From contig CAZNKP010000020.1 of assembly GCA_964573805.1 (NCBI GenBank), positions 3,761 to 67,760 on the forward strand: DNA of 64,000 nucleotides. Reading direction: 5' to 3'. The translations under genes and the position numbers were made by a program. Positions 9,285 through 54,222 of this stretch are shown piece by piece (position 1 is the first letter of the stretch; each line of letters starts with the position of its first letter). The stretch comes from an uncultured Desulfobacterales bacterium (lineage in GTDB: Bacteria; Desulfobacterota; Dissulfuribacteria; Dissulfuribacterales; QOAL01). The notes beneath the pieces were generated by a model that was not told the DNA's origin, did no database searches, and saw nothing but the letters and a program-made list of their open reading frames with translations.

Positions 9285-9294
9285 GAGCCCTCCC

Positions 9295-10440: not shown

Positions 10441-10444
10441 GCTT

Positions 10445-13548: not shown

Positions 13549-13592
13549 AATCCTTCCATGTAATTACAAGTTCTTCATCAATTCATGGCAGT

Positions 13593-14645: not shown

Positions 14646-15599
14646 TTATCCTTTGGGTCTAGCCCAGACTGTCATGCGCCCTGTTTGTCCCAAGAGACCG
14701 AGGATGAGTCCAAGGGGATAGAGGGCGGCGTTCAGAAGACCAGCCTTTTCCGGCAGTTTTATAAGCGCCTCTGCCATTTTTTCATATTTATAGTCTTGCA
14801 TCAGGTGCCCCAGGCTTGCAAACAGATTGGTCAATGTCCTGTGGTGATGAATTTTTTTCATTTCCCAGCCAGCCTTATCAAGTACCAAGCCAATGGTTTT
14901 AGGTGTAAAGTGATAGAGGTGACAAGGCAATTGTAGTGCATACCATCTGTCCTTGAAGATGGTAAATTCAAAGGATCCGGCATTTGGTACCGAGATTACC
15001 AGCCAGCCATCTGGCTTGATCCAGCTTCTCAATTTTTTCAATGCCAGGATTGGCTCGTGGAGATGTTCCAAGACCATCCAGCCCACTATCAAATCGAAAG
15101 TAGAGGCAGGAGCAGGGGCCTTTTCCACAGGACCTCGAAAGATTTTGTAGCCAAGCCTTGCAGCCGCCTCTGCTGCCGAAGGCGAAAACTCGATTCCCTC
15201 GACTGTCCATCCTCTTACAGCCATTTTGTGGAGAAAGGCGCCTGATGCACAGCCGATTTCAAGCATCCGTCCAGGTGGCATCTTTGGAAGCCTAGTGGTG
15301 TTGAACTCCAGCACTCTGGTATAAATCGGCCTGAGCACCTTCTTGATCCATTCCTTTTCTTGGGAGCTGTTTGTAGAAACCCTGGTGCCCAGATAAGGCC
15401 CATAGTCCTCGGGATAGTAAAGGCCAATGGAATCCTGTGTGGGGCGGGGGTTGGTTCGCATCAGGCCACAACTTTTGCAGCGAACCACTGCGAATCGTCC
15501 TGGTAGTGCGTGGATACGATCTCTGCCAACCAAAACGGGTTCATCGTCCCTTGGACATCCGAGTGGACATCCAGTGTCTTCAAGAATCACTTTGTTCAT
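14646..15599 (-). CDS. Class I SAM-dependent methyltransferase with N-terminal Cys-rich ribbon
   Basis: CPLGC...RCKSCGL; LEIGCASG motif I; FDLIVGWMVLEHL. Confidence 0.85.
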   Translation of the reverse strand: MNKVILEDTGCPLGCPRDDEPVLVGRDRIHALPGRFAVVRCKSCGLMRTNPRPTQDSIGLYYPEDYGPYLGTRVSTNSSQEKEWIKKVLRPIYTRVLEFNTTRLPKMPPGRMLEIGCASGAFLHKMAVRGWTVEGIEFSPSAAEAAARLGYKIFRGPVEKAPAPASTFDLIVGWMVLEHLHEPILALKKLRSWIKPDGWLVISVPNAGSFEFTIFKDRWYALQLPCHLYHFTPKTIGLVLDKAGWEMKKIHHHRTLTNLFASLGHLMQDYKYEKMAEALIKLPEKAGLLNAALYPLGLILGLLGQTGRMTVWARPKG

Positions 15600-16920
15600 T
15601 CGTCAGATACCGTCTTCTAAACACATAGAATTGCAACAGGAAGTTGGCAAGATAATACACGCTGGTTACCAAGGCCAATCCCGTGGTCTTCCAATAGAAG
15701 AATCCTGCCACCTTGCATGGTATATAGATGGTGTAGGTTACCATGGAAATCTTAGTTGGAGTCTTGGTATCGCCACAGGCATAAAATGCAACAGATGAGA
15801 TTTGCCCAAGGAGCCCGCCAAGCAGGAAACCTCCAAGGGTCACGAGTATCCACCATAGCTCTACCACATTGTCAGGCGAAAACTTGCCCATGACCACGAA
15901 GAGCATGAGCAGGTGCTTGCCAAAGAGGGCAACTATCAAAAGGGCTACAAGTCCCAGCGAGCAGACTATTGTAAGCCTTGAAAAATAGAGCCTCTTCAGT
16001 GGAGAGAGGGCCTTTTTTGAATAGAGGTTGCTTATTTGAGGGACAGTCGGGGCAGCTATGGCCTTGTTCAGTACTTGGCAGAATGCCCCGTAGATTTGTT
16101 GAGCAAAATAGTATAGTGAAAGGTTCCCGCTAGGCGCCATTGAAAGCAGCATACGCTCCACCAGCGGATCTGTCTTATAATAGGTGGTGCCTGCTAGGAG
16201 AGGGACGAGGCGTTTCCATGTTTGTCTTATGATTGGTGTGTCAAAGCGGGGCATTCTTGGCGTTCCCATGCCTGGGAGCAGTAGGATCGTCTGCATGACG
16301 AGTCTGAAAAGAGAAAGCCAGGCAGCAGCTAGAATTCCGAATCTTGGAAGGCTCCAGACTAGAAGAACAAGGGAGGTCAAGGCCGAGACCATGGGCACGA
16401 ATTCCGCCCAGACGAATTTTTGCCTGGCATGGTAGGATGCCCATTGAACGGCATTTACAGCGGACAAGACCAGAGCAAACAACTGGATGCGTGTCAATTT
16501 TATGGCGAGTTTCAGGGTAGGACCCTTGAACCCAGGAAACATGACAGGGACCCAGAATCTTGCCAGCAAAAAGAGCATCGTTGTCAAGGCGGAAAAGAGC
16601 ATAAACACCACGAAGAAAATGGTCCAAGCGTCTTGACTGATCTTTTCTTCAGGCTGTATAGCCAGAACAGGAACCAAGACGTGCATGAGAGAACTGCTTA
16701 CCATGGTGAGAATAAGCTGGGGCACTGTAAAGCTGGCAAAAAAGGCGTCGGTTTCAGCTCCTGCCCCAAGGGTACCCAGCACGAACCATTGAAAGAAAAA
16801 GGCGGCAACTATGGATGTGGCAGAGAATAAGGAGAGAAATAGTCCCTGTTTCAAATGATGATTCAATGTCCTATTGCCCCTGGCATGTCGAGTTTCTCCA
16901 TTGAATCTGTAGATTAGCAC
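15580..16920 (-). CDS. MurJ/MviN-like lipid-linked glycan flippase
   Basis: About 12 hydrophobic segments; GAGAETDAFFASFTVP MviN-like start; FYACGDTKTP; exact start uncertain. Confidence 0.75.
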   Translation of the reverse strand: MLIYRFNGETRHARGNRTLNHHLKQGLFLSLFSATSIVAAFFFQWFVLGTLGAGAETDAFFASFTVPQLILTMVSSSLMHVLVPVLAIQPEEKISQDAWTIFFVVFMLFSALTTMLFLLARFWVPVMFPGFKGPTLKLAIKLTRIQLFALVLSAVNAVQWASYHARQKFVWAEFVPMVSALTSLVLLVWSLPRFGILAAAWLSLFRLVMQTILLLPGMGTPRMPRFDTPIIRQTWKRLVPLLAGTTYYKTDPLVERMLLSMAPSGNLSLYYFAQQIYGAFCQVLNKAIAAPTVPQISNLYSKKALSPLKRLYFSRLTIVCSLGLVALLIVALFGKHLLMLFVVMGKFSPDNVVELWWILVTLGGFLLGGLLGQISSVAFYACGDTKTPTKISMVTYTIYIPCKVAGFFYWKTTGLALVTSVYYLANFLLQFYVFRRRYLTNEQSDS

Positions 16921-19810: not shown

Positions 19811-19912
19811 GATAGCCAGGCACCCCTGCGGCACACGAAGGGTCCCACTACCGTTGCTTCCTTCCGGACCTGGCGGGGTTCGCGGGATTTCGTTGCGCAG
19901 GACCCGGCTATC
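19811..19912 (-). ncRNA. ffs: Signal recognition particle RNA (4.5S type)
   Basis: Minus strand GATAGCCGGG...CAGGTCCGGAAGGAAGCAAC...CCTGGCTATC; long hairpin with GGAA tetraloop; upstream of dnaX. Confidence 0.93.
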
Positions 19913-19929
19913 AAAAGGTATCCAGTTTG

Positions 19930-20020
<91 letters not shown>

Positions 20021-20046
20021 ATAAACATATTCAAAATAGGTTCACT

Positions 20047-20076
20047 CTTATACACTTTCAAGGCCCATTGAGTCAA
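20047..20076 (-). promoter_or_regulatory. Sigma70-type promoter for tRNA-Ser(GGA)/ffs
   Basis: Minus strand TTGACT, 18 nt spacer, TATAAG. Confidence 0.45.
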
Positions 20077-20090
20077 CAAAATAAAATGAG

Positions 20091-20184
<94 letters not shown>

Positions 20185-24769: not shown

Positions 24770-26077
24770 ATGGGCTGGCTAGAATTTTACCGTACAGTTA
24801 CAACTCCTATAGGTCTAGTTGTCATACCTGTCATACGTTTTTTTGAAAAGAGATCCAGCGATCCCTCTGCATGGCGTCAAAGAAGAGGGCTTCTTCCTGA
24901 AACTGTATTAAAACAGGCTCCTTTTGACCTATGGATACATGGTGCATCTGTTGGAGAGATGACGGCAGTCAAGGCAATAGTAGACCAGATTATGAAAATG
25001 AGACCTTCTACCAAGGTGTTGGTTTCCTCCTTCACTCCGGCAGGCGTACTTCAGGCCCGAAAAATTTTTGCCCACAATATCCCGACGATACACCTTCCTA
25101 TTGATTATCCAAAGGCTACACGATTGGTATCGTCTGCACTTTCACCAAAGGTTTTCTGCACAGTAGAAACAGAACTATGGCCCAATCTCCTCCTTAGCCT
25201 TAGAGAGACGGGAAGCAGGCTTTTACTGTTAAACGGTAGGATTTCTGGACGTTCCTTTAACTCCTATAAAAGGATTCGTTTCCTCTTGAAGGAGCTGCTT
25301 GGTTCCTTTGATTTTATCTGCACAATTACGAACGCGGACAGGGAGAGGCTAATTTGTCTTGGTGCAAAGACAAAAAGACTCAAGATATGTGGAAATGCAA
25401 AATATGAAGATATGCTTATTAAGGCAGATCCCCAAAAGGCTAAGGCCGTTGGTCAAAAACTAGGACTTGCGCAGATTGACAGACCTGTCATAGTGGCAGG
25501 GAGTATCAGGGCCAATGAATATAGAGATGTATACCAGGCCAGTATACGTTTAAGGCGGGACGGCCTGGAGCCATTTATCGTACTTGTTCCAAGGCATCTT
25601 GAAAGGACAAAACAAATAAAGGCGTACCTGGAGGCCAAAGGGGAAACTTTTCAACTGTCCAGTCAAGTCTTATCAAGCAGACTTCCAACAATTGCCTACA
25701 AAAACTGTTCTTTTCTGATAATTGATCAAATTGGTTTGTTGTTTTGGCTTTACCATTACTGCCATGTAGCCTTTGTAGGAGGGTCTATCGCACCCCTTGG
25801 CGGCCAGAATATAATGGAGCCTGCAGCTTGGGGGAAACCAGTAATTTTTGGTCCCTTCGTAGACAACTTCCAGGAAGCTGCAGACTTGCTTATTCAGCAA
25901 GGGGGTGGCCGGATGGTTAGAAATAGCGATGATCTCTACCTGGAATTAAAAAGAATTTTAGTTAATCAAAACCTTCGTAAAGGGGCTGGCAAGATGGCAA
26001 AAAAAACTCTAGAGATGTTGGGCAAAGGGGCGGCTTCTATCCAGGCCCAAAAGATATTGGAATTCCTTTGTGAATGA
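24770..26077 (+). CDS. waaA: 3-deoxy-D-manno-octulosonic acid transferase
   Basis: WIHGASVGE, ETELWPN, VPRHLER, FVGGS..P.GGQN..EPA. Confidence 0.93.
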   Translation: MGWLEFYRTVTTPIGLVVIPVIRFFEKRSSDPSAWRQRRGLLPETVLKQAPFDLWIHGASVGEMTAVKAIVDQIMKMRPSTKVLVSSFTPAGVLQARKIFAHNIPTIHLPIDYPKATRLVSSALSPKVFCTVETELWPNLLLSLRETGSRLLLLNGRISGRSFNSYKRIRFLLKELLGSFDFICTITNADRERLICLGAKTKRLKICGNAKYEDMLIKADPQKAKAVGQKLGLAQIDRPVIVAGSIRANEYRDVYQASIRLRRDGLEPFIVLVPRHLERTKQIKAYLEAKGETFQLSSQVLSSRLPTIAYKNCSFLIIDQIGLLFWLYHYCHVAFVGGSIAPLGGQNIMEPAAWGKPVIFGPFVDNFQEAADLLIQQGGGRMVRNSDDLYLELKRILVNQNLRKGAGKMAKKTLEMLGKGAASIQAQKILEFLCE

Positions 26078-41413: not shown

Positions 41414-43795
41414 TTAAGGTATTACAAACCTCTGTAAGTTAATAGTGGTGGAGCCTACAGTAACCGTAGCGTGATTTGCATCAGTGAAATTAATGTTGAT
41501 CGTACCACCTTCGCCAGGAATTACTGTAGGAGGAGAGGTAAATGGACAACCTACACACTGCCCATTCATCCAACCATCCAAAGAACCTGTATAAGTCGTT
41601 GCTCCGTCGGCAAATGGAGCGCTAGAAGTCCACCAACGAGGGCTGTGATCATCACGGTAGTTGTACCATACCATTGCCATCTTTCCACCTCTTGCATCAA
41701 GATAGAAGCCCATACCGTTGTAGTTAGGATCATACCACCAACCAGTAAGATTCCTTGAGTCCTTGTCTCCTGGTGCAAAGTCCTTCATAAAGGAGCTGAA
41801 ATTATGAGACACCATCTTGTCTCCTATGGTTGCTGTAAAATTTATAAGATCGTTGGAGCCCTTGTTGAATACCATGCTAATAGAGCCTACTACTTCACTA
41901 GTTGGAGGAGAGTATGGCTCTTTTCCCCAAGCCCAACCTGTGAACTTCCAGAGCTGGCCCACGTATGCAGTTTCATTGACCAAGGATCCGCCTGAAGCGT
42001 ACCATGTTGTCCTGCCGTTTTCATCATATACAAACCAGGCCAGGAAGAGCTTATTGTTTTCCTGGATTTCAACTGCCATGCCTGTTCCTGGCTGGGAGGG
42101 ATCATACCACCAACCAGTGAAACGCTGTCTGGTCTCTTCCATAGGATCAGAGACCGCTTCGGTGGTGAATGTGTTATCCTCTCCCTCTACAGATCCACCT
42201 GCATTTTCTGCAACAAGGCGGAAATGATAGGTGGTTCCAGGTTGCAGGTCATTTACAGTTGCATTTACGCTGATTTCAGATGACCCGTCTCCTGCAGCAA
42301 ACCATGGGGTGGTGTTTCCATAATTAGTATCTGTGCCATATTCAAAGCGGTATTTTGTCTCTGCCCCCTGGGGGTTTAGGGTTCCTGTAAGAACGGCCGT
42401 ACGGGCAGTGACTTGCTCTGCAGAGCCTGTAGAGGCAACCGGTGCAGTTACACTTATGGCCGTAGTAGTGAACGTTCTGTCTGAACCCATGGATGTGCCT
42501 GTAGGATTTACTGCAACCAGTCTGTAATGGTAGGTAGTGCCAGGCGTAAGGTTGGCGATAATCTCATCTACAGTCTTGCTTGTTTTGTCAGAACCGGCGT
42601 CCCTGTCTGGTGTTACATTTCCGTAGCTTGTGGAAGTGCCCCACTCAAAATGATAGGTAGTGGCCTGGCCATTTGGATTTACAGAACCTCTCAATTTAGC
42701 GCTGGTCTGGGTAACATCCTGAGCAGAAAGGGTAGATACCGTTGGCTTCTCAGGGACATCGATTTCTGCATAATAAATATCCCAATCTGATCCATTCTTG
42801 GCCTGCCATAGGATTGCTCCGTTATCCAAAGACACCTGCTTATCGTCGATATTGTTGACAGTAACTCGGGTTATCTTTTCACCATCCCAATAATAGATTT
42901 CATAGTCAGAGCCATCATATCCCTGCCAGGCTATCTTGCCATTCCAAAGGGAGGGATATGTATCATCTTTGTCATTGTTGGTTATCTGAATTACCTGGGA
43001 GCCGTTCCAGTAGTAGATCTCCCAATCGTTACCATCGTATCCCTGCCAAGCTATCTTACCGTCATAGAGACTGGGGTATTTATCGTCGTTGCCGTTGTTT
43101 GTAAGTTGCCGCTTGGTGTTACCGTCCCAGTAATATATCTCATAATCGTTACCATCGTTTCCATACCAGGCAACTGTTTCACCAAATAGGGAAGGCGAAT
43201 AATCATTTCTACTATTGTTGCTAACATTGGCTTCAAAGGCCCCTTTTTTGACTATGATTTCATAGTCATGCCCGTCATATTTAGAATAGGCGATATTATC
43301 CTGATAAAGACTAGGTTTTTGGGCATTGTAATCTATCCAAGATGTTGAGTTTCCGTCCCACAATCCTATTGCGTCGGTGTCATAAAAATTCAAGCCTAAA
43401 TCTAGTGAATAATTTCCCCAAAAGGCAACCTTTTGGCCAAATGAGGATAGAGATTTAAGAGACGAGTCATTTGCAAAAAAAAGTTCAGCAGGGCGGTTGC
43501 TTAATGGATCAAATACCTTTTGGGCTGTTGACAGATCATTACTGGTATCCCACATGTATACACCATCACCTACTTTGTACCAAACGGCGTAACCGTTACG
43601 CAAAGAAGGGAAAATGTCGTTCTTGTTATCATCTGTAACATGCGAGATAATCACCGTATTAACAATTACTTGAAAGTTTGGAATTATAATAGCGTAAGAA
43701 GGACCATATGCCCAAACAGAATTTGAGTAAAAAAAGACAGCAAACAAAACAACCCAGTAAGATCGATTAATCAATCTGGCTAAAACACTCCTCAT
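41414..43795 (-). CDS. Large secreted modular protein (beta-propeller-like repeats, two FnIII-like domains, duplicated C-terminal domain)
   Basis: Signal peptide; 40-aa repeats; two A.L.G..NP.G..T.Y.FE.G modules; two TGWWYDP modules. Confidence 0.75.
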   Translation of the reverse strand: MRSVLARLINRSYWVVLFAVFFYSNSVWAYGPSYAIIIPNFQVIVNTVIISHVTDDNKNDIFPSLRNGYAVWYKVGDGVYMWDTSNDLSTAQKVFDPLSNRPAELFFANDSSLKSLSSFGQKVAFWGNYSLDLGLNFYDTDAIGLWDGNSTSWIDYNAQKPSLYQDNIAYSKYDGHDYEIIVKKGAFEANVSNNSRNDYSPSLFGETVAWYGNDGNDYEIYYWDGNTKRQLTNNGNDDKYPSLYDGKIAWQGYDGNDWEIYYWNGSQVIQITNNDKDDTYPSLWNGKIAWQGYDGSDYEIYYWDGEKITRVTVNNIDDKQVSLDNGAILWQAKNGSDWDIYYAEIDVPEKPTVSTLSAQDVTQTSAKLRGSVNPNGQATTYHFEWGTSTSYGNVTPDRDAGSDKTSKTVDEIIANLTPGTTYHYRLVAVNPTGTSMGSDRTFTTTAISVTAPVASTGSAEQVTARTAVLTGTLNPQGAETKYRFEYGTDTNYGNTTPWFAAGDGSSEISVNATVNDLQPGTTYHFRLVAENAGGSVEGEDNTFTTEAVSDPMEETRQRFTGWWYDPSQPGTGMAVEIQENNKLFLAWFVYDENGRTTWYASGGSLVNETAYVGQLWKFTGWAWGKEPYSPPTSEVVGSISMVFNKGSNDLINFTATIGDKMVSHNFSSFMKDFAPGDKDSRNLTGWWYDPNYNGMGFYLDARGGKMAMVWYNYRDDHSPRWWTSSAPFADGATTYTGSLDGWMNGQCVGCPFTSPPTVIPGEGGTININFTDANHATVTVGSTTINLQRFVIP
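42768..43220 (-). repeat. About four tandem 40-aa (120-bp) coding repeats
   Basis: NN..DD.YPSL..GKIAWQGYDG.DYEIYYW.G....Q.T repeated. Confidence 0.8.
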
Positions 43796-43985: not shown

Positions 43986-46766
43986 TTACTTGGTACATAC
44001 CAAGCCCTCGCACTCGGAAACGAGACATTTACGCACCTTCAAGGCCAACTCTAGAGGATTAAAAGGCTTTTTAATAAGCCTTAGACCGTTACCATTGGAG
44101 TTTTTTAAAGACTCGGAAAGGTCTGATATGGATGTGTAACCGCTGCAAAAGAGTATCTTTGCATTGGGATCAAACTCCATAATTTTCTTCGCAGATTCTA
44201 TTCCATCCATTTCTGGCATAAGTACATCCATGATAACCAAATCTATGTTAGGATAACCTTCTCTATATGCCTCAATGGCTTCCCGGCCGTTTGAGACTGT
44301 AACGATTTTGTAGCCGTAAGGCCGAAGAATTTCTTTTGCCAGAGCCCGTAACATTTCCTCATCATCAACGATGAGAATGGTTTCTTTCCCCTTTAGAGAT
44401 TCATGCCCGCAAGCTGAGCGGTTTGCAGCGGCCCTCTTGTCTGACGTAGGGAAATAAAGCTCAAATGTTGTCCCTAATCCTACTTGACTTTTGACATCTA
44501 CCGCTCCGCCAATCCTTTCCATTATTCCATAAACCATGGCCAATCCTAAACCGGAGCCCTTACCAACTTCCTTGGTAGTAAAAAAAGGATCAAAAATCCT
44601 CTCCAAGATTTCAGGAGCTATTCCACTTCCTGTATCAATGACACTGACTTTTAGGAAACTGTTTCCAGTTATTCGCTTTCGAATGGCAAAAGGCAATACA
44701 GAATAGGAAATCTGCTCAAGCACAACCGTGATCTTCCCGCCCCTGGGCATGGCATCCCTGGCGTTGATACATAAGTTTGTAATAATCTGTTGGAATTGAC
44801 TGGCACTGCAGGTGATATCTGGACATGCATTAGGCATTTTGACCTCTATCAGTATGTTTTTGGGAAAAGAACTCTTTATTAGTGCGATGGTTTCATCTAA
44901 AACAGTACTTGGCGAGCATACATCATCATCTTGTAGGCCAGCGTCCCTGCTAAAGACCAACATCTTTTTGACTAGATCAGCAGCCCTGAGACTAGATTTT
45001 TCTATGATTTCAGTGAATCGTGCAAGGTCGGGCATGTCTTTGGTCTTTTCTTTCATAAGGCTCGTAAAACCCAAGATGCCAGTCAGTATGTTATTAAAGT
45101 CGTGGGCTATACCACCTGCCATTGTCCCTATGGATTCCAGCTTTTGGGCCTGCAGCAACTTTCGTTCTAATTCTTTCTGATGGGTAAGGTCCGTTATCAG
45201 GGCCAAGCATCCCTGCATAGAATCGTCATTTTCATTGGTAATTGGTACACTGCTAATCAATGCAGGAACCACCGTGCTCCTATCCAGCGAACAGAGCACT
45301 AACTCCTCCTTGGCCTGCTGTCCCTGATAGTTGGCCATCATAAGAGAAACCAGTCTTTTCCGATCTTCTTCCTCAGGAACCAGGTTATATATATTTACTC
45401 CATTGAGGCCCTCTGCTCTCATAAGTTCGTTCATTTTCCTATTTGAGAAAAGGATGGAACCACCCTCATTCATAATGAGAATGCCCTCGTTTATATTTTC
45501 AACGATCTGGCGATACTTCTTCTCTGAAGTTTCTATGCGTTTATAAAGACTTGCATTTTCTATAGCCATTGCTATGTGGTTGGCAAAACTGGTTAGAAAA
45601 TCCCGGTCAATATCCTTTATAAACTCTTTGTTCGCCGCATTATCTCCAACCAGTATTCCAATTACTTCGCCTCTAACAGTAAGGGGAACTATTACAAACG
45701 CCTTGGGCTTAAAGGCTCTGAGCAAGGGATTACGCCTATTGAGCGTAATGCTGTCCACGTCGTCAACGAGTATTGGTCTTTGAGATTGGGCTGCCCGTGC
45801 AATGATGTTGTTCTTTTTATCTATCGGAATATAATATTTTTTTAATCTGTTTAAGGTTGACTCTTCTATTCCAGCTGCATGGATAAGGCTCAGTCTTTTC
45901 CCTTCTGCATCTACCAAAAACACTCCAGCCCTGTCTAGCTTTGCTATCACCATCATTCTTTTCAGTACCTTATCCAACAGCTCCGTAAGATCCAGGGTTG
46001 AAAGTATAGCCGTGCTAGTTTCATATAGTGCGGAAAGCTGGTCTATTTTGGCATTTAATTCCTTATTGAGGGCGTGAATCTTTTCGTACTTTTGTTGAAG
46101 AATCTCTTTGTCGTGCTCTAGCTCCTGAATAGACTCTTTTGCTATCTTCCAAGGTGCTATTATTTGGAAAAACTTATGTTTTAACAAAGACTTGGCCTTC
46201 CAAGAGAGATGATATTCGCAGTAGGGATCTCCCTTGAAAAAACACCTTTCCTCGCGTACGGTACATGACCTGCCACCCCATATAGTCGGAATTGCAGAGT
46301 ATATTCCTTGATTAAAAAGACAAAAATCTCTAGTCAGCTTTAAGTCTTTGTGCCAGTGGAGCTGTAATATGGCATTGTCTTTATTTATGTTCACCAAGTG
46401 TATGGTTTTTGTTTTGTTGAATTTATCGTTTACCTTCTGGGCATATCTCAGGATCTTGCTTGGTTTCCCAAAGGCGTATATTAGGATCTTTTGGACATAG
46501 CCAAAGCGTCTTCTTATTATTGAATCGTATCCTATTTTGTAGGCTATATTTTTGTCATTGGTTATCTTTTGGGCATTTTTATAAAGCCTGACAAGGACTT
46601 CTGAAGATACCCAATTATTTGGATCAGTTAGGAATTCCTTTTTGTTTTCTATTTCAGGAAGTTCGTCATCTAATCCTTCAAAGAGTTCATGAACCCTGTC
46701 AGGTTGATTTTCTTCGATATATCGGATAATTGCCTCGGTATTAAGACAACTGTTTGTCTTTTTCAT
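43986..46766 (-). CDS. Cytoplasmic hybrid histidine kinase (V4R/HNOB-like, GAF, PAS, HisKA, HATPase, REC)
   Basis: No TM segments; N-terminal C...E-x2-C-x7-C; GAF ([11 protein letters not shown]); GGIAHDFNN; receiver DVLMP; start adjusted to MKKTN. Confidence 0.88.
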
Positions 46767-46912
46767 TCTTCTTATAAGACCAATTCCAATCAAGTGGTTC
46801 AAAAATCAACATCACCTTTAACAAAGCTAAAAGGATTTGATTTTTGAATTTTTTCTATTAACTATTATAATAAAAATGGTTTTACATATAAAGGTAGTCC
46901 TTTTGTGTATTT

Positions 46913-46929
46913 CTGGCATCTTTTATGCT
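46913..46929 (+). promoter_or_regulatory. Sigma54-dependent promoter (-24/-12)
   Basis: CTGGCATCTTTTATGCT: GG(46915-16), 10 nt, GC(46927-28), matching YTGGCACGNNNNTTGCW. Confidence 0.7.
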
Positions 46930-47035
46930 CTTATAATATCGGAGGTGGTTATATGACATAAAACAACTCCCAACCCTTTTTATCTAGAAACAAGAAACAG
47001 GCGCTCAGACAATAATAAAAGAGGAGGAGAAGACG

Positions 47036-48019
47036 ATGAGACGTCCTGTCACCTTTAAAAAGCTGGGTATTAGCCAGTTTTTCCAGCTCCCATTTAATGT
47101 TTATCTGGCAAAGGCCATGCCTATACCTCTTTTGAGATGTTATATGTATTTTTGGGGGCTTTTGTATGTGCTTTTCCAAATCCGAATGTTTTTAAACATA
47201 GCAACATGTTTAAGCCTCATTTACAGATCCCGTCCCTTCGATTACAAATTCATCGTTTATCTTCTAAGATCTCTTTTCGGCGTTTTTGAGCATTACTTTG
47301 AAAAAATGGTAATGGCCTATAAGGAGCTAGACGAGCTCCAAAACTATTTAGAGCAGAGACTGATAATCTGTAACAAGGATCTCCTTGATAGGCTAGCCAG
47401 AAAAGGTAAGGGCGCACTTTTAGTAACTGGACACTTCGGCTCGGTAGAGTACCTTCCGTTATCCTTGGCCATGCATGGATACAAGGTATCTATGATATGT
47501 AAGTTTAAGACCCAAACATTAAAGGAGGCCCTAACAGAAAAGGCTGCCTGTTTTGGTGTACAGCTTATCGATGCTAATGAGCCAGGTGTTGCTTTTAAGG
47601 CCGTAAGGGCAATAAAGGAAGGAAGGTTTCTGATAACCGAATGTGATGAATTTTCGGAGTGGCGATTCCACAGGACGCACAGGGTATCTGTACTTGGATT
47701 GTTACTCCCCCAAGATAGGACCTTGGACTTCTTTTTCAAAAAGGCCAAGGCACCTGCGTTCTTAACTCTCATGAAACGAGAAAATGGCAGAATAAAAATG
47801 ATGGTGGAATTTTTGGCTGATGGAAGCAGAGATGAGAGTGTTGCTGCCGTTGCATGGAGAAAAATGGAAACATTTATTTTAAACTATCCATTCCAGTGGT
47901 ATCAGATCAAAGGGGCTTCCAAATTCCTATTGGAGAATGCACTTGAGCCACATGTTGATAATAAAAAAGGCCAAGATATTTCAGGTAAGGATTCCGTTCT
48001 CAGTCCAAGTTACTCATAA
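47036..48019 (+). CDS. LpxL-like (lysophospholipid) acyltransferase family protein
   Basis: LLVTGHFGSVE (H-x4-E/D), N-terminal hydrophobic anchor, YPFQWY tail; GAGGAGGA RBS. Confidence 0.72.
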   Translation: MRRPVTFKKLGISQFFQLPFNVYLAKAMPIPLLRCYMYFWGLLYVLFQIRMFLNIATCLSLIYRSRPFDYKFIVYLLRSLFGVFEHYFEKMVMAYKELDELQNYLEQRLIICNKDLLDRLARKGKGALLVTGHFGSVEYLPLSLAMHGYKVSMICKFKTQTLKEALTEKAACFGVQLIDANEPGVAFKAVRAIKEGRFLITECDEFSEWRFHRTHRVSVLGLLLPQDRTLDFFFKKAKAPAFLTLMKRENGRIKMMVEFLADGSRDESVAAVAWRKMETFILNYPFQWYQIKGASKFLLENALEPHVDNKKGQDISGKDSVLSPSYS

Positions 48020-49094
48020 TCTTGCCAAAAGGCAGGAGAGTCATGGCTTTTTATTAGAGCTTACAGATAAAGACGGACTTAGAGGATACGGTGAAGGTAC
48101 GCCCAGATCTTATGTCACAGGGGAGGCCTTTGAAGAGACAAAAAAGGTTCTCAATCAGATTGCTGGGGAGCTTGTTGGTTACCAAGCAGAAAACGAAGGC
48201 ATTTTCCTGCATTTTTTAGAACAACTAAAGGAAGACGACAGGTTAGCATCATATCCTTCAGCACTTTGTTGCCTTGAGCTGGCCCTTTTGGATCTCTATT
48301 GCAAAAGAATCAGTATCCCCATATGGAAACTCGTAGTGGACAAGCCAGCTACTGATACCATCTCTTATTCCTCTATCCTTCCACTTCTTTCCTCAATGCA
48401 GCGCAAGTCCATTCTCAGGCTTACAAAGCAGTTCCAGATACGCCAAATAAAAACAAAGGCCACCTCAATTGGTGATACCTTAAAGGTTGTGACTGAAATA
48501 CAAAACACTCTAGGGGCTGATGCTGATATTCGGATTGACGCAAACGGGGCATTCAGCGCTGAACAGGCTATTGGCCTTGCTAGAGAAATAGAGGCGGCAG
48601 GGCTTTCCATTTCTAGCCTGGAACAGCCTGTCCCCAAAGAAGATCTGGAGGGCATGAAAGAGGTAGAGAAGGCAACAGGGCTTCCAACTATAGCTGATGA
48701 ATCCTTTTGCTCTAAAGATGATCTCCAAAGGATAATAGCTAAAAGGAGTTGCAAAGGTCTTAATGTCAGGCTTTCAAAGTGTGGCGGATTATTGAACTGC
48801 AAGGATATGGTTGAATGTGCCAGGAATGCCGGTCTATTTTGTCAACTTGGATGCCATGTTGGAGAAACATCTATACTTTATGCAGCTGGTCGTCAACTTG
48901 CTGCCATATGTGGACCTTTTAGATATACAGAGGGATGTTATTCAAAATTCCTGTTAAAAGAAGATATTGTCCTAAATCCCCTGGAATTTGGTTTGGAAGG
49001 CAAGACAACCATTCCGACTGATCCTGGGCTTGGAGTCAAAATCAAAGAGTCGGCCTTGAGACGTTACTGTCATCCTGTGGCCGAAATATACTGA
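47952..49094 (+). CDS. Enolase-superfamily enzyme (MLE/epimerase subgroup)
   Basis: GYGEG, KxK (KTK), RIDANG, LEQPV, IADES, LSKCGG, GCHVGE. Confidence 0.85.
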   Translation: MLIIKKAKIFQVRIPFSVQVTHNLAKRQESHGFLLELTDKDGLRGYGEGTPRSYVTGEAFEETKKVLNQIAGELVGYQAENEGIFLHFLEQLKEDDRLASYPSALCCLELALLDLYCKRISIPIWKLVVDKPATDTISYSSILPLLSSMQRKSILRLTKQFQIRQIKTKATSIGDTLKVVTEIQNTLGADADIRIDANGAFSAEQAIGLAREIEAAGLSISSLEQPVPKEDLEGMKEVEKATGLPTIADESFCSKDDLQRIIAKRSCKGLNVRLSKCGGLLNCKDMVECARNAGLFCQLGCHVGETSILYAAGRQLAAICGPFRYTEGCYSKFLLKEDIVLNPLEFGLEGKTTIPTDPGLGVKIKESALRRYCHPVAEIY

Positions 49095-49111: not shown

Positions 49112-50449
49112 TCAACTTTCAGGGCAGTTATCTGAAAAGGGCTGATTTGAGAAGATTCTATTTAAACGTCCTCTTATCTCGGGATGATATTCAACCCTAT
49201 TATTGATGTCTCTCAACCCGGGGGGTAACTTTTGCTGCGAACAAATTGTCCTTTTTCTTATTTCCCTGAGATTATCTTGATAAATCCGCTTTCCCCTTTT
49301 CATAACCCTGACCAAAAGGGGCTTCGCAGATGGAATATTTTCATCCATAGTTGTTATAACATCCGATTCAAACAGTCCCTTCCTGTCAAAGCATCTGAAT
49401 ACCTGTTTTCTATATGGCAAGGTCTTCTTTCCTGTTGAATACTTCATACGTGGTGCTCTTTCGTATTCAACCATCTTATAGGCGCAATCCAAAAATGGCG
49501 CATCGGCTGAGGTGTCTACTAGGGTGCCAACGCCAAAGCCGTCTATAGGTGCACCACTTGCAACTAGGTTATTGATCTTTGTTTCATCCAGTCCCCCAGA
49601 GACAAATATCAAAAGCTCATTGCAACCTTCTTGATCAAAGATTTTTCGCACCCGCCTCGAAAGCTCAAACAGGTCACCGCTGTCAATTCGGACGCCTTTG
49701 ATCCTGATTCCCTTTTTCAAATATTCGTGATAAAGTCTTGTGACCAGCCTGGCACATTTTAGGGTGTCAAAGGTATCGATGAGCAAAATGGCCTTCTGGG
49801 GATGCATGTCAATGAAACTTCTAAAGGCCGCCTCTTCTGAACCGTGGGCAAGAACAAACGAATGGGCCATTGTGCCCGTAACAGGAATGCCGTATGCTCT
49901 GCCAGCCTCAACTGTGGCAGTGCCACTAAAACCTCCAATGTAACATGCCCGGGAAGCCAAAAGTCCTGCTGAGGCTTCATGGCTGCGCCTTAGTCCAAAA
50001 TCTAGTAAAGGCTTACCCCTTGCCGCCAGTGTAACCCGTATGGCCTTGCTGGCAATAAGTATCTGAAAATGCAAGATATTGATAATCCGTGTCTCTACAA
50101 GCTGTGCCTGTGGAAGTGGAGCTTCTACTCTCAGGATGGGTTCGTTTGCAAAGAAGATGGTTCCTTCTGGCATTGCCCAGACGTCTCCAACAAACGAGAA
50201 TTTGGCAAGATAATCTAGTAGATCTTGACTGAAACCGATTTCCTTTAGATACGAAAGCTCTTCTATTCCGAAACGCAGGCCTTCTAGATACATCATCACC
50301 TGCTCAAGACCTGCTGCTACCAAAAAATTCCGTTTTTCTGGAAGCTTTCTTACAAAAAACTCAAAACTTGCCCATCCATTGAGGCCTCTTTTCACATAGA
50401 CCTCGATCATAGATAACTGATAGTAATCTAACAAAAGGGGGCAATTCAC
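49112..50449 (-). CDS. pncB: Nicotinate phosphoribosyltransferase
   Basis: LLDYYQLSM, DFGLRR, GTMAHS, LIDTFD, RIDSGD, GFGVGT; GTG start after GAGGTG. Confidence 0.93.
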   Translation of the reverse strand: MNCPLLLDYYQLSMIEVYVKRGLNGWASFEFFVRKLPEKRNFLVAAGLEQVMMYLEGLRFGIEELSYLKEIGFSQDLLDYLAKFSFVGDVWAMPEGTIFFANEPILRVEAPLPQAQLVETRIINILHFQILIASKAIRVTLAARGKPLLDFGLRRSHEASAGLLASRACYIGGFSGTATVEAGRAYGIPVTGTMAHSFVLAHGSEEAAFRSFIDMHPQKAILLIDTFDTLKCARLVTRLYHEYLKKGIRIKGVRIDSGDLFELSRRVRKIFDQEGCNELLIFVSGGLDETKINNLVASGAPIDGFGVGTLVDTSADAPFLDCAYKMVEYERAPRMKYSTGKKTLPYRKQVFRCFDRKGLFESDVITTMDENIPSAKPLLVRVMKRGKRIYQDNLREIRKRTICSQQKLPPGLRDINNRVEYHPEIRGRLNRIFSNQPFSDNCPES

Positions 50450-50457
50450 AGGCCACC

Positions 50458-51060
50458 TCACGCAAGATGTAGGCCTTTGAGCAATTTGGCTCCCAACTGC
50501 TCCATCCTGTTCAAGGCTTCGTTGGCCTTTTTTTCGTCCACTCCTAAGATACAATCGGTAATCACAAACGTGTCCAGACCCAGGTTGATAGCGTCTTTAA
50601 CTGTTTCAAAAACACAATATTCGGTGGCAAGGCCAGTTACAAATATCCTTTTCACATCCTTTTCCTTAATCATTGTGTATAGATCCGTGCCCTTAAATCC
50701 TGAATAGGCCTCTTGTTCCCTGTCGGTAGCCTTTGAAACAACATACGCGCTTGAAGGCACAAAGAGACCAGAGGCAAACATTGCCCCTTTTGTATTCTTG
50801 ACACAGTGCACAGGCCACATGCCTCCATAATCTTTAAAAGAACAGTGATCCTTTGGATGCCAGTCTCTAGTGAAAAATATAGGAAGCCCCTTTTTATCAA
50901 ACAAATTAACCATCCTGTTTATTGGCTCTATAAGCCTTCGCCCACCGGTTACGGCCAAAGCGCCTCCATCCATAAAATCTTCCTGCATGTCCACTACTAT
51001 CAGCCCGCAATATGCATCAAGGGCCACACATAGCTCGTTTCCTGTTTTCTCAACATACAT
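50458..51060 (-). CDS. pncA: Nicotinamidase/pyrazinamidase
   Basis: VVDMQEDF, DWHP..H, WPVHC, SK, GLATEYC. Confidence 0.92.
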   Translation of the reverse strand: MYVEKTGNELCVALDAYCGLIVVDMQEDFMDGGALAVTGGRRLIEPINRMVNLFDKKGLPIFFTRDWHPKDHCSFKDYGGMWPVHCVKNTKGAMFASGLFVPSSAYVVSKATDREQEAYSGFKGTDLYTMIKEKDVKRIFVTGLATEYCVFETVKDAINLGLDTFVITDCILGVDEKKANEALNRMEQLGAKLLKGLHLA

Positions 51061-52984
51061 GTTCAAATATCAGCCTGCCGGTGTCTCTTGTATCATATCC
51101 TCCCAAGGCTTCTACTGCCTTTTTAAAACATTCTTCCCTTATACATTCGAGGAAAAGTCTTATCGGGTGCTGGCCCATTAATCTTTTTAAGATCAGTATG
51201 TCATACCTCTCTTCCACCACTGGAATAAAATCGAGTCCCAGGGCCTTTGCAGCCGACAGTATCCCAAGTCCTGCATCTGCCTTTCCGCTCAGTACACTCA
51301 CAGCCACTGCCATATGAGTGTATTCTTCATTTTCATATCCTTTGACACGGCTTGGATTCAATCCTGCTTTTGAGAGTTCAAAATCCAACAATACCCTTGT
51401 TCCAGAACCAAGCTGTCTGTTTACAAATGTGATATCATGGCGCTCTAGATCTTTTAAAGAAGAGATTCCTTTTGGATTGCCCTTAGGCACCATTAAGCCT
51501 TGCTGCCTATACACCAAGTTTATCAAAATGGCCGGTTCGTTTATGTATCTTTTTATATAGCTCACGTTGTAACCACCATCTTCCGGATCAAGGAGATGGG
51601 TCCCTGCAATGTGACAAAGCCCCTTTGCAATAGCATGTATTCCTCCAAGGCTGCCCACATGGGTAGAGGCCATCTGAATAGCAGGCGATCTCTTTTTCAA
51701 CAAGTCTGAAATAATATCAAGGGAGAGATCGTGGCTGCCAATACATATCAGGGTCTTGTCGAGGCTCTGCCATGGTCTTAAAAGCTCAATATCAACCAGG
51801 CTCCCCTCTTCAATCCCTTCGGATTCCAAAGGTATCCTTAATATTCCGTTTGCCCTGGTAATAGTTGTAATTGAGCCAGCCCCCTTTTTTATAGGGCTCG
51901 CAACAATATGCTCTCCAACCTTGCCGGCAACAACCCGCCTAAACTCTTCGATTCCGGCCCTTGACGGCAAAGATTTTGACAGGATGGCCTTCGTCTTTGA
52001 AGGCTTGGGTACATCCTTACCCTGGAGTCTATTCAATAAAGGGGCAACTATTTGCTCAAATGCAATTATGGCAGAGACTGGATAACCAGGAATTCCTATT
52101 ACGGGTTTGCCTTTCACAATGCCTACAATTGTTGGCTTCCCTGGCATTACAGTAATTCCATGGACAAGGACCTGGCCGAGCCTTTCAAGTATGGATACTG
52201 TATAATCTGCTGAACCAGCAGATGAACCAGCATTGACAAGAACTACATGGGCATTGGAATCACAGGCCTTTATAACGGCCTTTTCTATTTCACATGGATC
52301 ATCTTTCACTATACTTGTTACTTGAGGTATGGCTCCGCATGCTTCTGCAAGAGATGCTAGCACTGCAGAGTTTGACTCTGGAATCTGTCCTGGCTCCGGA
52401 TTAGCGCCATCTAGGGACTCTAGATCGACTAGTTCCGAACCAGTTGGAATTATAGTTACAACTGGCCGTTTCCACACCTTGACCTTGAGATTCCCGCTGG
52501 CTATCAAGCCTCCTATATCATAAGGTGCCAATAAGTGATTGGTGGGAAAGACAAGTTCTGTCGCCACTATGTCTTCGCCAACTTTTCTGACATTTTGCCA
52601 TGGGAAGACCGGGGTGCGAATTAGGATGTGTTCCCTGGCCCTGTCTATAAGACAGTGCTCGATCATAACCACTGCATTTTTCCCTTCAGGCAGTGGGAAT
52701 CCTGTGTTTACAGCAAGGGCTTCATTTCCTATCTTTAAGGCAACAGGCTTGTCATCTCTGGCAGAAAAGGTTTGCTCTGCAACAACCGCATATCCGTCCA
52801 TAGCTGCTGAATGAAATCCTGGAGCGGATATACGGGCAAAAACCGGACATGATGTTACACGTCCAGAAGCTGCCTTGCTGGCTACTTCCTCGTCTCCCAC
52901 CATGTCTCCAGGGCCAAAGCGATCTAGCAGAAGAGAACGGGCCTGTCCTAATTCCTTCATGTTCAGATAAATTCTTCTTTTCAT
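51050..52984 (-). CDS. moeA: Molybdopterin biosynthesis MoeA fused to a PBP/LysR-type substrate-binding domain
   Basis: AMDGYAV, IPTGSE, MPGKPT, PGYPVSA, then GSHD, GSLGG, NRQ.GSGTR. Confidence 0.92.
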   Translation of the reverse strand: MKRRIYLNMKELGQARSLLLDRFGPGDMVGDEEVASKAASGRVTSCPVFARISAPGFHSAAMDGYAVVAEQTFSARDDKPVALKIGNEALAVNTGFPLPEGKNAVVMIEHCLIDRAREHILIRTPVFPWQNVRKVGEDIVATELVFPTNHLLAPYDIGGLIASGNLKVKVWKRPVVTIIPTGSELVDLESLDGANPEPGQIPESNSAVLASLAEACGAIPQVTSIVKDDPCEIEKAVIKACDSNAHVVLVNAGSSAGSADYTVSILERLGQVLVHGITVMPGKPTIVGIVKGKPVIGIPGYPVSAIIAFEQIVAPLLNRLQGKDVPKPSKTKAILSKSLPSRAGIEEFRRVVAGKVGEHIVASPIKKGAGSITTITRANGILRIPLESEGIEEGSLVDIELLRPWQSLDKTLICIGSHDLSLDIISDLLKKRSPAIQMASTHVGSLGGIHAIAKGLCHIAGTHLLDPEDGGYNVSYIKRYINEPAILINLVYRQQGLMVPKGNPKGISSLKDLERHDITFVNRQLGSGTRVLLDFELSKAGLNPSRVKGYENEEYTHMAVAVSVLSGKADAGLGILSAAKALGLDFIPVVEERYDILILKRLMGQHPIRLFLECIREECFKKAVEALGGYDTRDTGRLIFEHVC

Positions 52985-54222
52985 GGCAGTAGCATCACCT
53001 CCGCCTCTTCTCCCTCATGATATCCTTCTCTGTCTCGCGGTATTTTCAACAGCCCTTGGGCAGCGACAAGGGTAGAGATCAGTCCGGACTTGCCATAGAT
53101 GGGATAGGCCACAGGTAGGTCGACATTGTCCTCCCTTTGCAATCGAACCCTAACGTAGTCTTCCCTCCCTGTGACTGAAGGAAACATCTGGCCGCATATT
53201 ACATCCTTGAATTCCATGCCTGTGTCAGGGGCCAGTCCCAACATAATGTTAAGCAGGTACTGGACAAATAACAGATACACCACCATACAAGAGGCAGCAT
53301 GGCCTGGAAGACCAAAAAGGGCCTTATCTCCAAGACGGGAAATGATGGTAGGTTTGCCAGGCCTTATGGCCACTCCATGGACAAGGGGAGGAGAGCCCGA
53401 AAGATTCCGAAACACCTTTAAGGTGTAGTCCCTTGCTCCAACAGAGCTTCCACCTGATACAAGAATCACATCAGCCCCAAGCTCCAGGGCTTCCTTGCAT
53501 CTTTGGTATATTGCATCAAAAGAATCTTTAACTATGCCCAACCTTACAGGGATACCTCCTCCTTGACATACAAGGGCCGACAGGGTTGTTGAGTTGATAT
53601 CTCTAACTTTTCCAATACTAATGGATTCGTTTTCTGAGACAATTTCATCTCCAGTGCTTATAATGGCCACTTTGGGCCTTTTGATCACCTGCACCTTTGT
53701 CACTCCAAGGCCTGCCAAAAGTCCAAGGTCCTGTGGACGAAGCCTTGCCCCTTTTTTTATACATACCTGACCCTTTTGACAATCTTCACCCTTTAATATG
53801 ACGTTATCATTTGGTGCGGCTGCCTTATATATCTCTATTAGTGATGGATCAATCTCTTTGGTATATTCTACCATGACCACCGCATCTGCTCCCTTTGGCA
53901 ACATGCCTCCTGTCCATATTCGAACCGCTTCACCCACATCTAAGGGCCCTGCTCCTGGATCTTGACCCATTTGCACCTCACCAATCACCTTTAACAGGGC
54001 AGGCTCTGTTTCAGAGGCACCGAATATGTCTTTGGCGCGCACTGCATATCCATCCATTGTGGAACGAGAAAAAGGAGGAAGATCCTCGGGAGATAAAATG
54101 TCGCAAGCCACAGTCCTTCCCAGGGCATCTGAAAGGGCCACTTGCTTGTGTGTTAGTTCCGGAAAGGACTGCAAAATTTGCTGTACTTGTGATGTTGTCA
54201 AAAGCCTGAAAAAGCCCTTCAT
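52981..54222 (-). CDS. moeA: Molybdopterin molybdotransferase MoeA (Glp)
   Basis: PPFSRSTMDGYAV, STGDE, SGGSSVG..D, RPGKP. Confidence 0.94.
   Translation of the reverse strand: MKGFFRLLTTSQVQQILQSFPELTHKQVALSDALGRTVACDILSPEDLPPFSRSTMDGYAVRAKDIFGASETEPALLKVIGEVQMGQDPGAGPLDVGEAVRIWTGGMLPKGADAVVMVEYTKEIDPSLIEIYKAAAPNDNVILKGEDCQKGQVCIKKGARLRPQDLGLLAGLGVTKVQVIKRPKVAIISTGDEIVSENESISIGKVRDINSTTLSALVCQGGGIPVRLGIVKDSFDAIYQRCKEALELGADVILVSGGSSVGARDYTLKVFRNLSGSPPLVHGVAIRPGKPTIISRLGDKALFGLPGHAASCMVVYLLFVQYLLNIMLGLAPDTGMEFKDVICGQMFPSVTGREDYVRVRLQREDNVDLPVAYPIYGKSGLISTLVAAQGLLKIPRDREGYHEGEEAEVMLLP

Follow-up and report, generated by a model that had tools for sequence, protein, structure and literature searches.

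The V4R domains of XylR, DmpR and MopR sense substrates of the pathways that they control, and the zinc site of DmpR is formed by C151, E172, C177 and C185 (PMC7264223). In aminolipid synthesis the second step belongs to an O-acyltransferase of the LPLAT family, which includes LpxL, LpxM and PatA; OlsA/GlsA-type enzymes O-acylate an N-(3-hydroxyacyl) amino acid, FeeM-type enzymes share their N-acyltransferase family with the LuxI-type synthases LasI and EsaI, and the authors of that review expect further O-acyltransferase types to be discovered (PMC11631085). Enolase-superfamily enzymes of the MLE subgroup carry catalytic lysines on strands 2 and 6, the latter serving as acid/base in the two-base racemase reaction, while what it contributes to the OSBS dehydration is purely electrostatic (bioRxiv 10.1101/2022.03.03.481873). 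Here we describe a locus that encodes a kinase with a V4R-like sensor domain, an LPLAT-superfamily acyltransferase and an MLE-subgroup enzyme. It lies at positions 43986-49094 of a 64-kb stretch of DNA (the window) from an uncultured Desulfobacterales bacterium.

An earlier note on this stretch had read the locus as a putative signal synthase-receptor module, with a sensor kinase divergent from a sigma-54-driven enzyme pair. All of the elements that it named are present where it had put them. The open reading frame (ORF) list gives a head-to-head layout of three genes:

43986-46766, minus strand: soluble hybrid histidine kinase, from ORF and Pfam evidence (the listed ORF reaches TTG 46802)
47036-48019, plus strand: putative LpxM/PatA-fold acyltransferase of the LPLAT superfamily (327 amino acids, PF03279)
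47952-49094, plus strand: MLE-subgroup enolase-superfamily enzyme (380 amino acids from M6; the ORF opens at 47937)

We scanned one genome per species (185,579 species genomes) for relatives and found 183, from which 80 loci were taken for context. Neighbouring ORFs were clustered over 90 loci, six separate context look-ups having been made besides the species scan. The three genes occur together across about 80 species of sulfate-reducing bacteria, and their clusters dominate the neighbourhood (acyltransferase 82, kinase 75, enolase 71), followed by FadL/TodX with 20, an NtrC-type activator with 14 and all others with at most 11. Co-occurrence had been named in the earlier note as a check on the module, and the linkage held. 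A kinase with this N-terminal domain was found in 36 of the 39 species loci having at least 4 kb on both sides, and it was divergent and adjacent in 55 of the 68 loci having at least 1.5 kb upstream. The enolase gene directly follows the acyltransferase gene in 53 of 71 loci and is relocated within about 3-5 kb in another 6. The triad is kept, while its flanks change, over a range of acyltransferase identity from 77% down to about 33%, in Thermodesulfatator, Desulfocapsa, SEEP-SRB2, Desulfosarcina, Syntrophobacterales and Desulfobaccales. Rearranged loci stay linked as well. Five of them carry kinase, acyltransferase and enolase on one strand (L080, L081, L084, L086 and L088), and five others have the acyltransferase followed by the kinase, without the enolase gene (L059, L062, L064, L068 and L078). 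Desulfosarcina variabilis Montpellier (L060; complete genome, NZ_CP159846.1, region 4702250-4723080) has kept the whole divergent triad, although its sensor is only 26% identical and its kinase has no GAF domain.

The acyltransferase and enolase genes overlap by 68 nt when the enolase is started at M6 (ATG 47952), which reproduces the overlap of about 68 nt first reported, or by 83 nt from the ORF opening at 47937. The consensus N-terminus of the family, MMxIKKxxIY, fits M6. In the relatives the two ORFs overlap by 1-85 nt in 37 of 53 loci, and the enolase is in the +1 frame in all 53. This pattern points to translational coupling of the two predicted enzymes. The acyltransferase tail within the overlap is poorly conserved, and residues 305-327 have a pLDDT below 50. 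The unvarying +1 relation led us to consider a programmed frameshift fusing both enzymes, which was dropped: read in the frame of the upstream gene, the A-run in the overlap is no slippery site, and common descent is enough to account for the relation.

Literature searches on the sensor/enzyme combinations returned no published description of the module. The unit is real and undescribed. We take its three genes to be a single functional unit confined to Desulfobacterota. Both enzymes represent new subfamilies within known superfamilies, and the one of the enolase superfamily lacks a feature by which its subgroup is defined.

The spacer between the divergent genes holds three elements:

46798-46848, no strand: perfect 12-nt inverted repeat, TTCAAAAATCAA-N27-TTGATTTTTGAA, 66-116 nt upstream of the -24 element
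46914-46929, plus strand: putative sigma-54-type -24/-12 element TGGCAT-N5-ATGCT, TGGCATCTTTTATGCT, from pattern match and conservation
46941-46961, plus strand: leader mini-ORF, with a Shine-Dalgarno (SD) sequence GGAGG at 46941-45 and ATG-ACA-TAA at 46953-61, kept in the closest relatives

The near-consensus sigma-54 promoter that had been claimed for the enzyme pair is present, unique in the window and conserved in two clades. It has GG at 46915-16 and GC at 46927-28 with the correct spacing, agrees with the consensus TGGCAC-N5-TTGCW at 8 of 11 positions, and is the sole match to TGGCAYN5WTGCW on both strands of the window. By chance, 0.43 such matches are expected per window and about 0.001 in the 269-bp spacer in this orientation. 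Of 12 orthologous spacers that were aligned, 10 keep the element as a block of conservation; the proteins of the relatives concerned are 60-77% identical. The corresponding place in a second clade (L023-L026, L028, L035, L036 and L070) reads GGCAY-yAATT-yTGCr. Transcription is predicted to start near 46940.

The leader mini-ORF begins at this predicted start, about 75 nt ahead of the SD sequence and ATG of the acyltransferase. Its pattern of SD sequence, ATG, one codon and stop recurs in L001, L002, L010-L013 and L022 with a varying codon (ACA, GTC, ATC or ACT) and a varying stop (TAA, TAG or TGA), and appears in 0.3% of shuffled spacers. Its role may be to control translation or to load ribosomes. 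The inverted repeat could be an activator-binding site, a suggestion that is inference only; it is not visibly conserved in the spacer alignment of relatives. An Rfam scan of the locus returned no riboswitch or leader RNA.

A sigma-54 promoter requires an activator, and the earlier note had placed one elsewhere. There is no GAFTGA-type sigma-54 activator in the window, and the regulator must be encoded elsewhere in this genome. Six relatives (L024, L025, L030, L032, L036 and L070) carry a gene of NtrC type (REC-Sigma54_activat-HTH_8) beside the acyltransferase; the six activators are 74-100% identical to one another, and a FadL/TodX gene usually stands between activator and acyltransferase. 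These loci also keep the -24/-12 element. The placement of the activator next to the acyltransferase in relatives with the element supports a chain from kinase to NtrC-type regulator to sigma-54 promoter.

At L025 (10993-13910) the FadL/TodX channel and NtrC-type activator genes lie directly beside the acyltransferase; this locus forms a SEEP-SRB2-like clade with the other five. In that clade the enolase gene is shifted by about 4.5 kb, beyond the kinase, and adjoins a PP-loop ATPase gene.

The kinase ORF (43986-46802, minus strand) encodes 938 amino acids and opens at TTG 46802. Since the homologue alignments begin at residue 12-13, ATG 46766 is more likely to be the true start, giving 926 amino acids. 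The protein reads, in order, sensor, coiled coil, GAF, PAS, HisKA, HATPase_c and receiver (REC), of which Pfam recognizes GAF, PAS, HisKA, HATPase_c and Response_reg:

46158-46766, minus strand: predicted N-terminal zinc-V4R/H-NOX-fold ligand-binding domain, about 203 amino acids, from an AlphaFold2 model, Foldseek matches and a Cys/Glu cluster
45558-45995, minus strand: GAF domain (Pfam PF01590/PF13185, residues 270-415)
45183-45518, minus strand: PAS domain (Pfam PF13426/PF00989, residues 429-540)
44034-45128, minus strand: transmitter (HisKA and HATPase_c) and C-terminal REC (Pfam PF00512, PF02518 and PF00072)

The translation has an H-box, AHDFNN, and the receiver Asp in MDVLMP. The kinase is soluble, because none of its segments passes for a transmembrane helix; hydropathy peaks at 1.85, in a GAF strand containing R and E. 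The description "soluble hybrid kinase" was therefore right, with the GAF and PAS domains as additions to it. The kinase core matches the PrsK model weakly (87.7 bits against a cut-off of 300). In a relative, L008 (2859-6697), the kinase orthologue is broken into four ORFs of 163, 573, 116 and 71 amino acids and the FadL gene on the same contig is split in two, which reflects either a decaying locus or indel errors in a long-read assembly.

The first 200 or so residues of the kinase had been described as a V4R/HNOB-like small-molecule-binding domain. They give no significant Pfam match (V4R E = 0.11, 13 bits against a cut-off of 31) and no match in a sequence search against the PDB, so a fold search was used instead. 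The AlphaFold2 model, built on 16 sequences, is confident (pLDDT 87, pTM 0.84). Its top 42 Foldseek matches are all H-NOX domains (E to 9e-8, TM 0.66-0.71), followed by the phenol-sensing V4R domains of MopR and PoxR and by TRAPP Bet3, at E of about 1e-4. The alignment for this model came from a word-indexed search with 15 matches, mostly fragmentary, and was not used for distribution. That was taken from an exhaustive search of 1.84 billion representative proteins, which returned 764 relatives of the domain at E <= 1e-3, 225 at E <= 1e-10 and 46 at E <= 1e-30.

Pfam V4R (PF02830) is matched by 19 of 40 sampled relatives at the equivalent position (best E 2.9e-10), and by the sensor of the L059 orthologue at E 4.4e-5. 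Across the broad family C7, C149, E172, C175 and C183 are near-invariant, in the pattern C149...E172-x2-C175-x7-C183, and the Cys spacing (26 and 8) equals that of the DmpR zinc site, a likeness that suggests a zinc site here too. The assignment is thus supported at the level of fold and motif, with the window's own protein below the strict Pfam V4R cut-off. Haem-binding H-NOX domains rely on a proximal His and the residues YxSxR. Two alignments of the sensor family contain no invariant or near-invariant His and no YxSxR, and because of this we ruled out a haem sensor.

At E <= 1e-10 the sensor family comprises at least 225 clusters at 50% identity, and its members are fused to kinases, cyclases, an ABC exporter and FeeM synthases. 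The exporter fusion (P0179, L092 7001-10123, on an 842-kb contig) is MsbA-like, with ABC_membrane and ABC_tran domains and the V4R-like sensor domain at its C-terminus. The domain seems to be an under-annotated input domain, and a guess at the class of its ligands, acyl amino acids or lipids, has become possible.

The acyltransferase passes the PF03279 cut-off marginally (24.2 bits against 22.3), with only residues 102-199 aligned. A sequence search against the PDB returned no match, and a fold search was again used instead. The AlphaFold2 model (pLDDT 84.6) matches only LpxM of Acinetobacter (5KN7, E 3e-11, TM 0.63-0.65) and PatA of Mycobacterium (E about 1e-9, TMt 0.74-0.77), with E from 3e-11 to 1e-8 over these matches and above 0.02 for all that follow. 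The HX4E catalytic dyad, H133-x4-E138 in TGHFGAVE, is invariant among 21 family members. There is one marginal hydrophobic helix (residues 41-63), and the C-terminal tail is disordered. The LpxL equivalog cut-offs are missed, at 29 against 248 bits (NF006270) and 21.9 against 281 (NF006487). Of the label "LpxL-like acyltransferase", then, the fold stood and orthology to LpxL did not: model and sequence place the protein in the LpxL/LpxM/PatA fold of the LPLAT superfamily, nearer to LpxM and PatA and not as an LpxL orthologue. Its homologues were found only in Desulfobacterota, and it extends the LpxL/PatA fold beyond the synthesis of lipopolysaccharide (LPS) and phosphatidylinositol mannoside.

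The second enzyme carries both MR_MLE domains of Pfam, and its attribution to the enolase superfamily was correct; to this we add the MLE subgroup and an atypical strand-6 residue. In a profile search its closest solved relatives were the dipeptide epimerases 3JVA, 1JPM and 3Q45 and the N-succinyl-Arg/Lys racemase 2P88 (E 1e-56 to 1e-66). The metal ligands D201, E229 and D254 on strands 3-5 are invariant and align with D191, E219 and D244 of YkfB. The KxK at the end of strand 2, K172-x-K174, is profile-aligned to the KiK of 3JVA and 1JPM; K174 does not vary, and 115 of 120 further members of the family have KxK, counted in database sequences anchored on the DAN motif.

At the position of the strand-6 catalytic lysine (YkfB K268) the enzyme has an arginine, R278. 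This residue is invariant in the curated alignment (22/22) and in the locus-derived members (48/48) and is Arg in 112 of the 120 further members; Lys occurs there in none of the three sets. In dipeptide epimerases a DxD motif binds the ammonium group of the dipeptide. The enolase protein has no such motif, the FDFDA of YkfB aligning to YTEGC. It also misses all NCBIfam equivalog cut-offs by a wide margin, including those for dipeptide epimerases (NF041118, 112 against 500 bits; NF011708, 59 against 343). R278 and the absent DxD rule out a plain dipeptide epimerase. The enzyme is probably not a two-base racemase, and from the invariant Arg and the missing DxD we infer a one-base reaction, elimination or cyclisation, and not epimerisation. 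With its invariant Arg at this position, the family would add to a superfamily that has been studied intensively a type of reaction not known there before, or a new specificity at the least.

Four of the 40 sampled sensor proteins, each from a separate 50%-identity cluster, have one architecture in common, with a FeeM-type N-acyl amino acid synthase domain first, the sensor domain second and a kinase ATPase last. Against a FeeM cut-off of 27 bits, P0276 scores 46.9 and P0236 32.6; P0220 and P0196 fall just below. The idea of an acyl-transferring synthase tied to this sensor thus gains independent support from other lineages. Two such fusions sit in a conserved cluster (L090, 1393-9248; L091, 1589-9947) with the order HTH_17-REC regulator, stand-alone FeeM, 110-residue protein, HATPase protein, REC-kinase, FeeM + V4R-like + kinase fusion, and SDR and/or B12 radical SAM. 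Several kinases are thereby grouped in one module around the acyl-amino-acid synthase.

The missing DxD suggests that the nitrogen of the substrate does not carry a free amine. Because relatives of the enolase act on N-acylated amino acids, DxD is absent and aminolipid pathways end with an LPLAT O-acyltransferase, the product or substrate is most probably an N-acyl-amino-acid-type lipid, that is, an aminolipid or lipoamino acid.

Our preferred reading, held tentatively and at not quite an even chance, is a ligand-controlled two-component/sigma-54 circuit that governs synthesis or modification of an acylated amino-acid-like lipid. The genes present, their folds and motifs, their shared conservation, that of the promoter and the sensor fusions are shown; for the phosphorelay partner, substrate class, reaction type and ligand we infer the following. 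The cytoplasmic kinase would bind a hydrophobic or lipid-like molecule in its zinc-V4R/H-NOX-fold pocket, with GAF and PAS as further inputs, and would pass phosphate to an NtrC-type response regulator, a neighbour in some relatives and encoded elsewhere in this genome. The regulator would switch on the promoter at 46914-46929, driving two translationally coupled enzymes that may act on the same acylated carboxylic acid. The LpxM/PatA-fold enzyme would transfer a fatty acyl chain; like enzymes of the OlsA/GlsA type, it might place the chain on the 3-hydroxyl group of an N-(3-hydroxyacyl) amino acid. The enolase enzyme would take the proton next to the free carboxylate with its sole remaining base, K174, and the one-base outcome would be elimination or ring closure instead of racemisation. 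The ligand of the kinase could be the product lipid or a precursor, so that the circuit would match enzyme output to the lipid level.

Several observations weigh against this circuit. The sigma-54 element is known from only two clades of the family and was not found in the Desulfocapsa and Desulfosarcina clades, and the spacer also holds a sigma-70-like promoter. The hybrid kinase has no Hpt domain, and how it would reach an NtrC-type regulator is not evident. The enolase gene was not seen within reach in 12 of 71 loci, and at least one locus (L007) is without the kinase. Neither the 90 triad loci nor the window yielded a gene for an OlsB/FeeM-type N-acyltransferase, which would be needed to make the N-acyl amino acid, and to our knowledge no LpxL-family enzyme has proven activity on aminolipids. 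The FeeM fusions are distant relatives of the sensor (24-32% identity), and their ligand class need not carry over.

A possible but doubtful alternative is cell-cell signalling, in which the enzyme pair would synthesize a diffusible acylated autoinducer and the V4R kinase would receive it; sigma-54 would provide positive feedback, and the hydrophobic molecule would re-enter through FadL/TodX where that is present. Synthase-beside-receptor synteny is held across the phylum, and the gene linkage in the proposed synthase/receptor layout stood. Neither enzyme is related to a known autoinducer synthase, their only matches being PF03279 and MR_MLE. Fusions of the FeeM synthase domain, sensor domain and kinase exist, and FeeM-type enzymes belong to the N-acyltransferase family of LasI and EsaI (PMC11631085). 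However, a synthase fused to its own receptor points to sensing of an intracellular product over sensing of a population. In favour of signalling, the distribution is patchy and accessory (183 relatives in the 185,579 species genomes), and many carriers come from lineages that form consortia or biofilms, such as SEEP-SRB2 and Desulfosarcina. Against signalling, the sensor is cytoplasmic, no exporter is conserved in the neighbourhood of the 90 clustered loci, and FadL/TodX, a frequent neighbour, is just as compatible with a compound taken up from outside. A role of the molecule as a cell-cell signal is plausible but unproven. We consider rather unlikely the more specific proposal of an undescribed class of lipid signalling in sulfate-reducing Desulfobacteria, where acyltransferase and one-base enolase make an acyl-amino-acid-like autoinducer that is read by the V4R/H-NOX-fold kinase, with feedback through the NtrC-type regulator and sigma-54.

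Uptake of an outside compound is also unlikely to be the purpose of the locus. Under this explanation a carboxylate that resembles a fatty acid or is otherwise hydrophobic enters via FadL/TodX and is sensed by the V4R kinase, and the induced enzymes assimilate, modify or detoxify it, the activated compound serving as acyl donor. Of the 80 species loci, 18 from several clades have a FadL/TodX gene no more than about 1-3 kb away, and in L003 and L015-L018 it is followed by an AMP-binding, FadD-like ligase. It is nonetheless missing from most loci, and there is no FadL gene in the window. The arrangement of the locus, with the sensor gene divergent from an operon behind a sigma-54-type promoter, is the one classically seen in catabolic operons. 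The V4R domains of XylR, DmpR and MopR, moreover, sense pathway substrates (PMC7264223). However, two conserved enzymes do not make a catabolic pathway, and the tight coupling of acyltransferase and enolase looks biosynthetic.

Regulated remodelling of lipid A, with the acyltransferase as a conditional LpxL/LpxM paralogue that adds a secondary acyl chain, as cold-induced LpxP does, and the enolase in a side function, seems very unlikely. LpxM is the best structural match, and the HX4E dyad is as in LpxM, where the title of PDB entry 5KNK names the catalytic-residue substitution E127A; PatA, however, is an equally good structural match and is not an LPS enzyme. The organism makes LPS containing Kdo, since the Kdo transferase WaaA is encoded in the window. 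Its gene (waaA, 24770-26077) is the LPS gene nearest to the acyltransferase and is 21 kb distant, in agreement with the earlier note, which had placed the acyltransferase outside any LPS cluster. The LpxL equivalog score of 29 against 248 bits, the restriction of the family to a small fraction of one phylum, and an obligatory overlap with an enzyme that needs the alpha-proton of a free carboxylate, for which lipid A chemistry has no place, all argue against remodelling.

Chance adjacency of three unrelated genes with a fortuitous -24/-12 match, which one window alone could not exclude (the promoter pattern arises somewhere in 64 kb in 31% of shuffles), is already effectively refuted by retention of the triad in dozens of species, among unrelated flanks and after rearrangement, and by promoters at orthologous positions in two clades.

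The genes around the three-gene unit change readily. Just downstream of the kinase (41414-43795, minus strand) is a gene for a secreted protein of 793 amino acids with a signal peptide, two FN3 domains and a repetitive N-terminal half (DG.DYEIYYWDG repeats). It is retained beside the kinase only in the closest relatives (6 loci) and for that reason falls outside the core module. On the minus strand at 49112-54222, converging on the enolase gene, are an NAD salvage pair, for nicotinate phosphoribosyltransferase and nicotinamidase, and two molybdopterin genes of MoeA type; among the relatives, only the closest (L001 and L002) have kept them. Elsewhere the window holds a second hybrid histidine kinase unrelated to the module (2023-4887, minus strand; dCache-PAS-HisKA-HATPase-REC), a polysaccharide cluster separate from waaA (8091-16920; four GT4 glycosyltransferases, an asparagine synthase, a methyltransferase and a MurJ-like flippase), and a signal recognition particle RNA (19811-20184, minus strand; Rfam, 81.8 bits) followed by two long-arm tRNA genes.

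Next to nothing is known of how sulfate reducers, or the partners of methane-oxidising archaea, signal from cell to cell or by lipids, and the module offers a concrete entry point. A cultured carrier with a complete genome is available in Desulfosarcina variabilis Montpellier.

Compared with known systems, the module has the layout, and only the layout, of LuxM/LuxN, CqsA/CqsS, PhcB/PhcS and RpfF/RpfC, where one or more synthase genes stand beside a sensor kinase; a lipid-like molecule would be expected here. The kinase receptors of those quorum-sensing systems are embedded in the membrane, whereas that of the module is cytoplasmic and soluble, and the synthase families are unrelated. Systems linked to PEP-CTERM/exosortase include a two-component kinase and a sigma-54 response regulator (PrsK/PrsR). 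N-acyl amino acid synthase genes are linked to PEP-CTERM/exosortase systems (PMC7293339, citing Craig et al. 2011). There, too, an acyl-amino-acid synthase is tied genomically to another system, but sensor domain and enzymes differ from those of the module, and no exosortase or PEP-CTERM genes were found at the locus.

On the enzyme side, dipeptide epimerases and N-succinylamino acid racemases are the closest sequences and share KxK and the D/E/D metal ligands with the module's enolase; the dipeptide epimerases have the strand-6 Lys and DxD, whereas the module's enzyme has Arg and no DxD. The two-step logic of OlsB/OlsA and GlsB/GlsA, with its LPLAT-family O-acyltransferase, can be likened to that of the module (PMC11631085). 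OlsA belongs to the PlsC type (PF01553), whereas the module's acyltransferase belongs to the LpxL/PatA type (PF03279). We know of no aminolipid pathway with an enolase-superfamily enzyme. FeeM-type synthases make a more direct connection: in other lineages the FeeM domain is physically fused to the module's sensor family.

The sensor itself stands between two known groups. H-NOX gas sensors are its best structural match, over about 190 residues, and likewise act upstream of a histidine kinase, but they are separate proteins with a proximal His and YxSxR, whereas the module's domain is fused to its kinase and has neither feature. With XylR, DmpR, MopR and PoxR the module shares a V4R-type pocket domain, a Cys3/Glu zinc-site pattern with the same Cys spacing and, as its proposed output, a sigma-54 promoter of a divergent enzyme operon. 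Its fold is nevertheless nearer to H-NOX (TM 0.66-0.71) than to MopR/PoxR (about 0.5), the phenol-positioning His is not conserved, and the target genes are not aromatic catabolic genes. In the XylR/DmpR type the A domain sits on the AAA+ activator itself, whereas in the module the corresponding domain heads a hybrid kinase with GAF and PAS domains.

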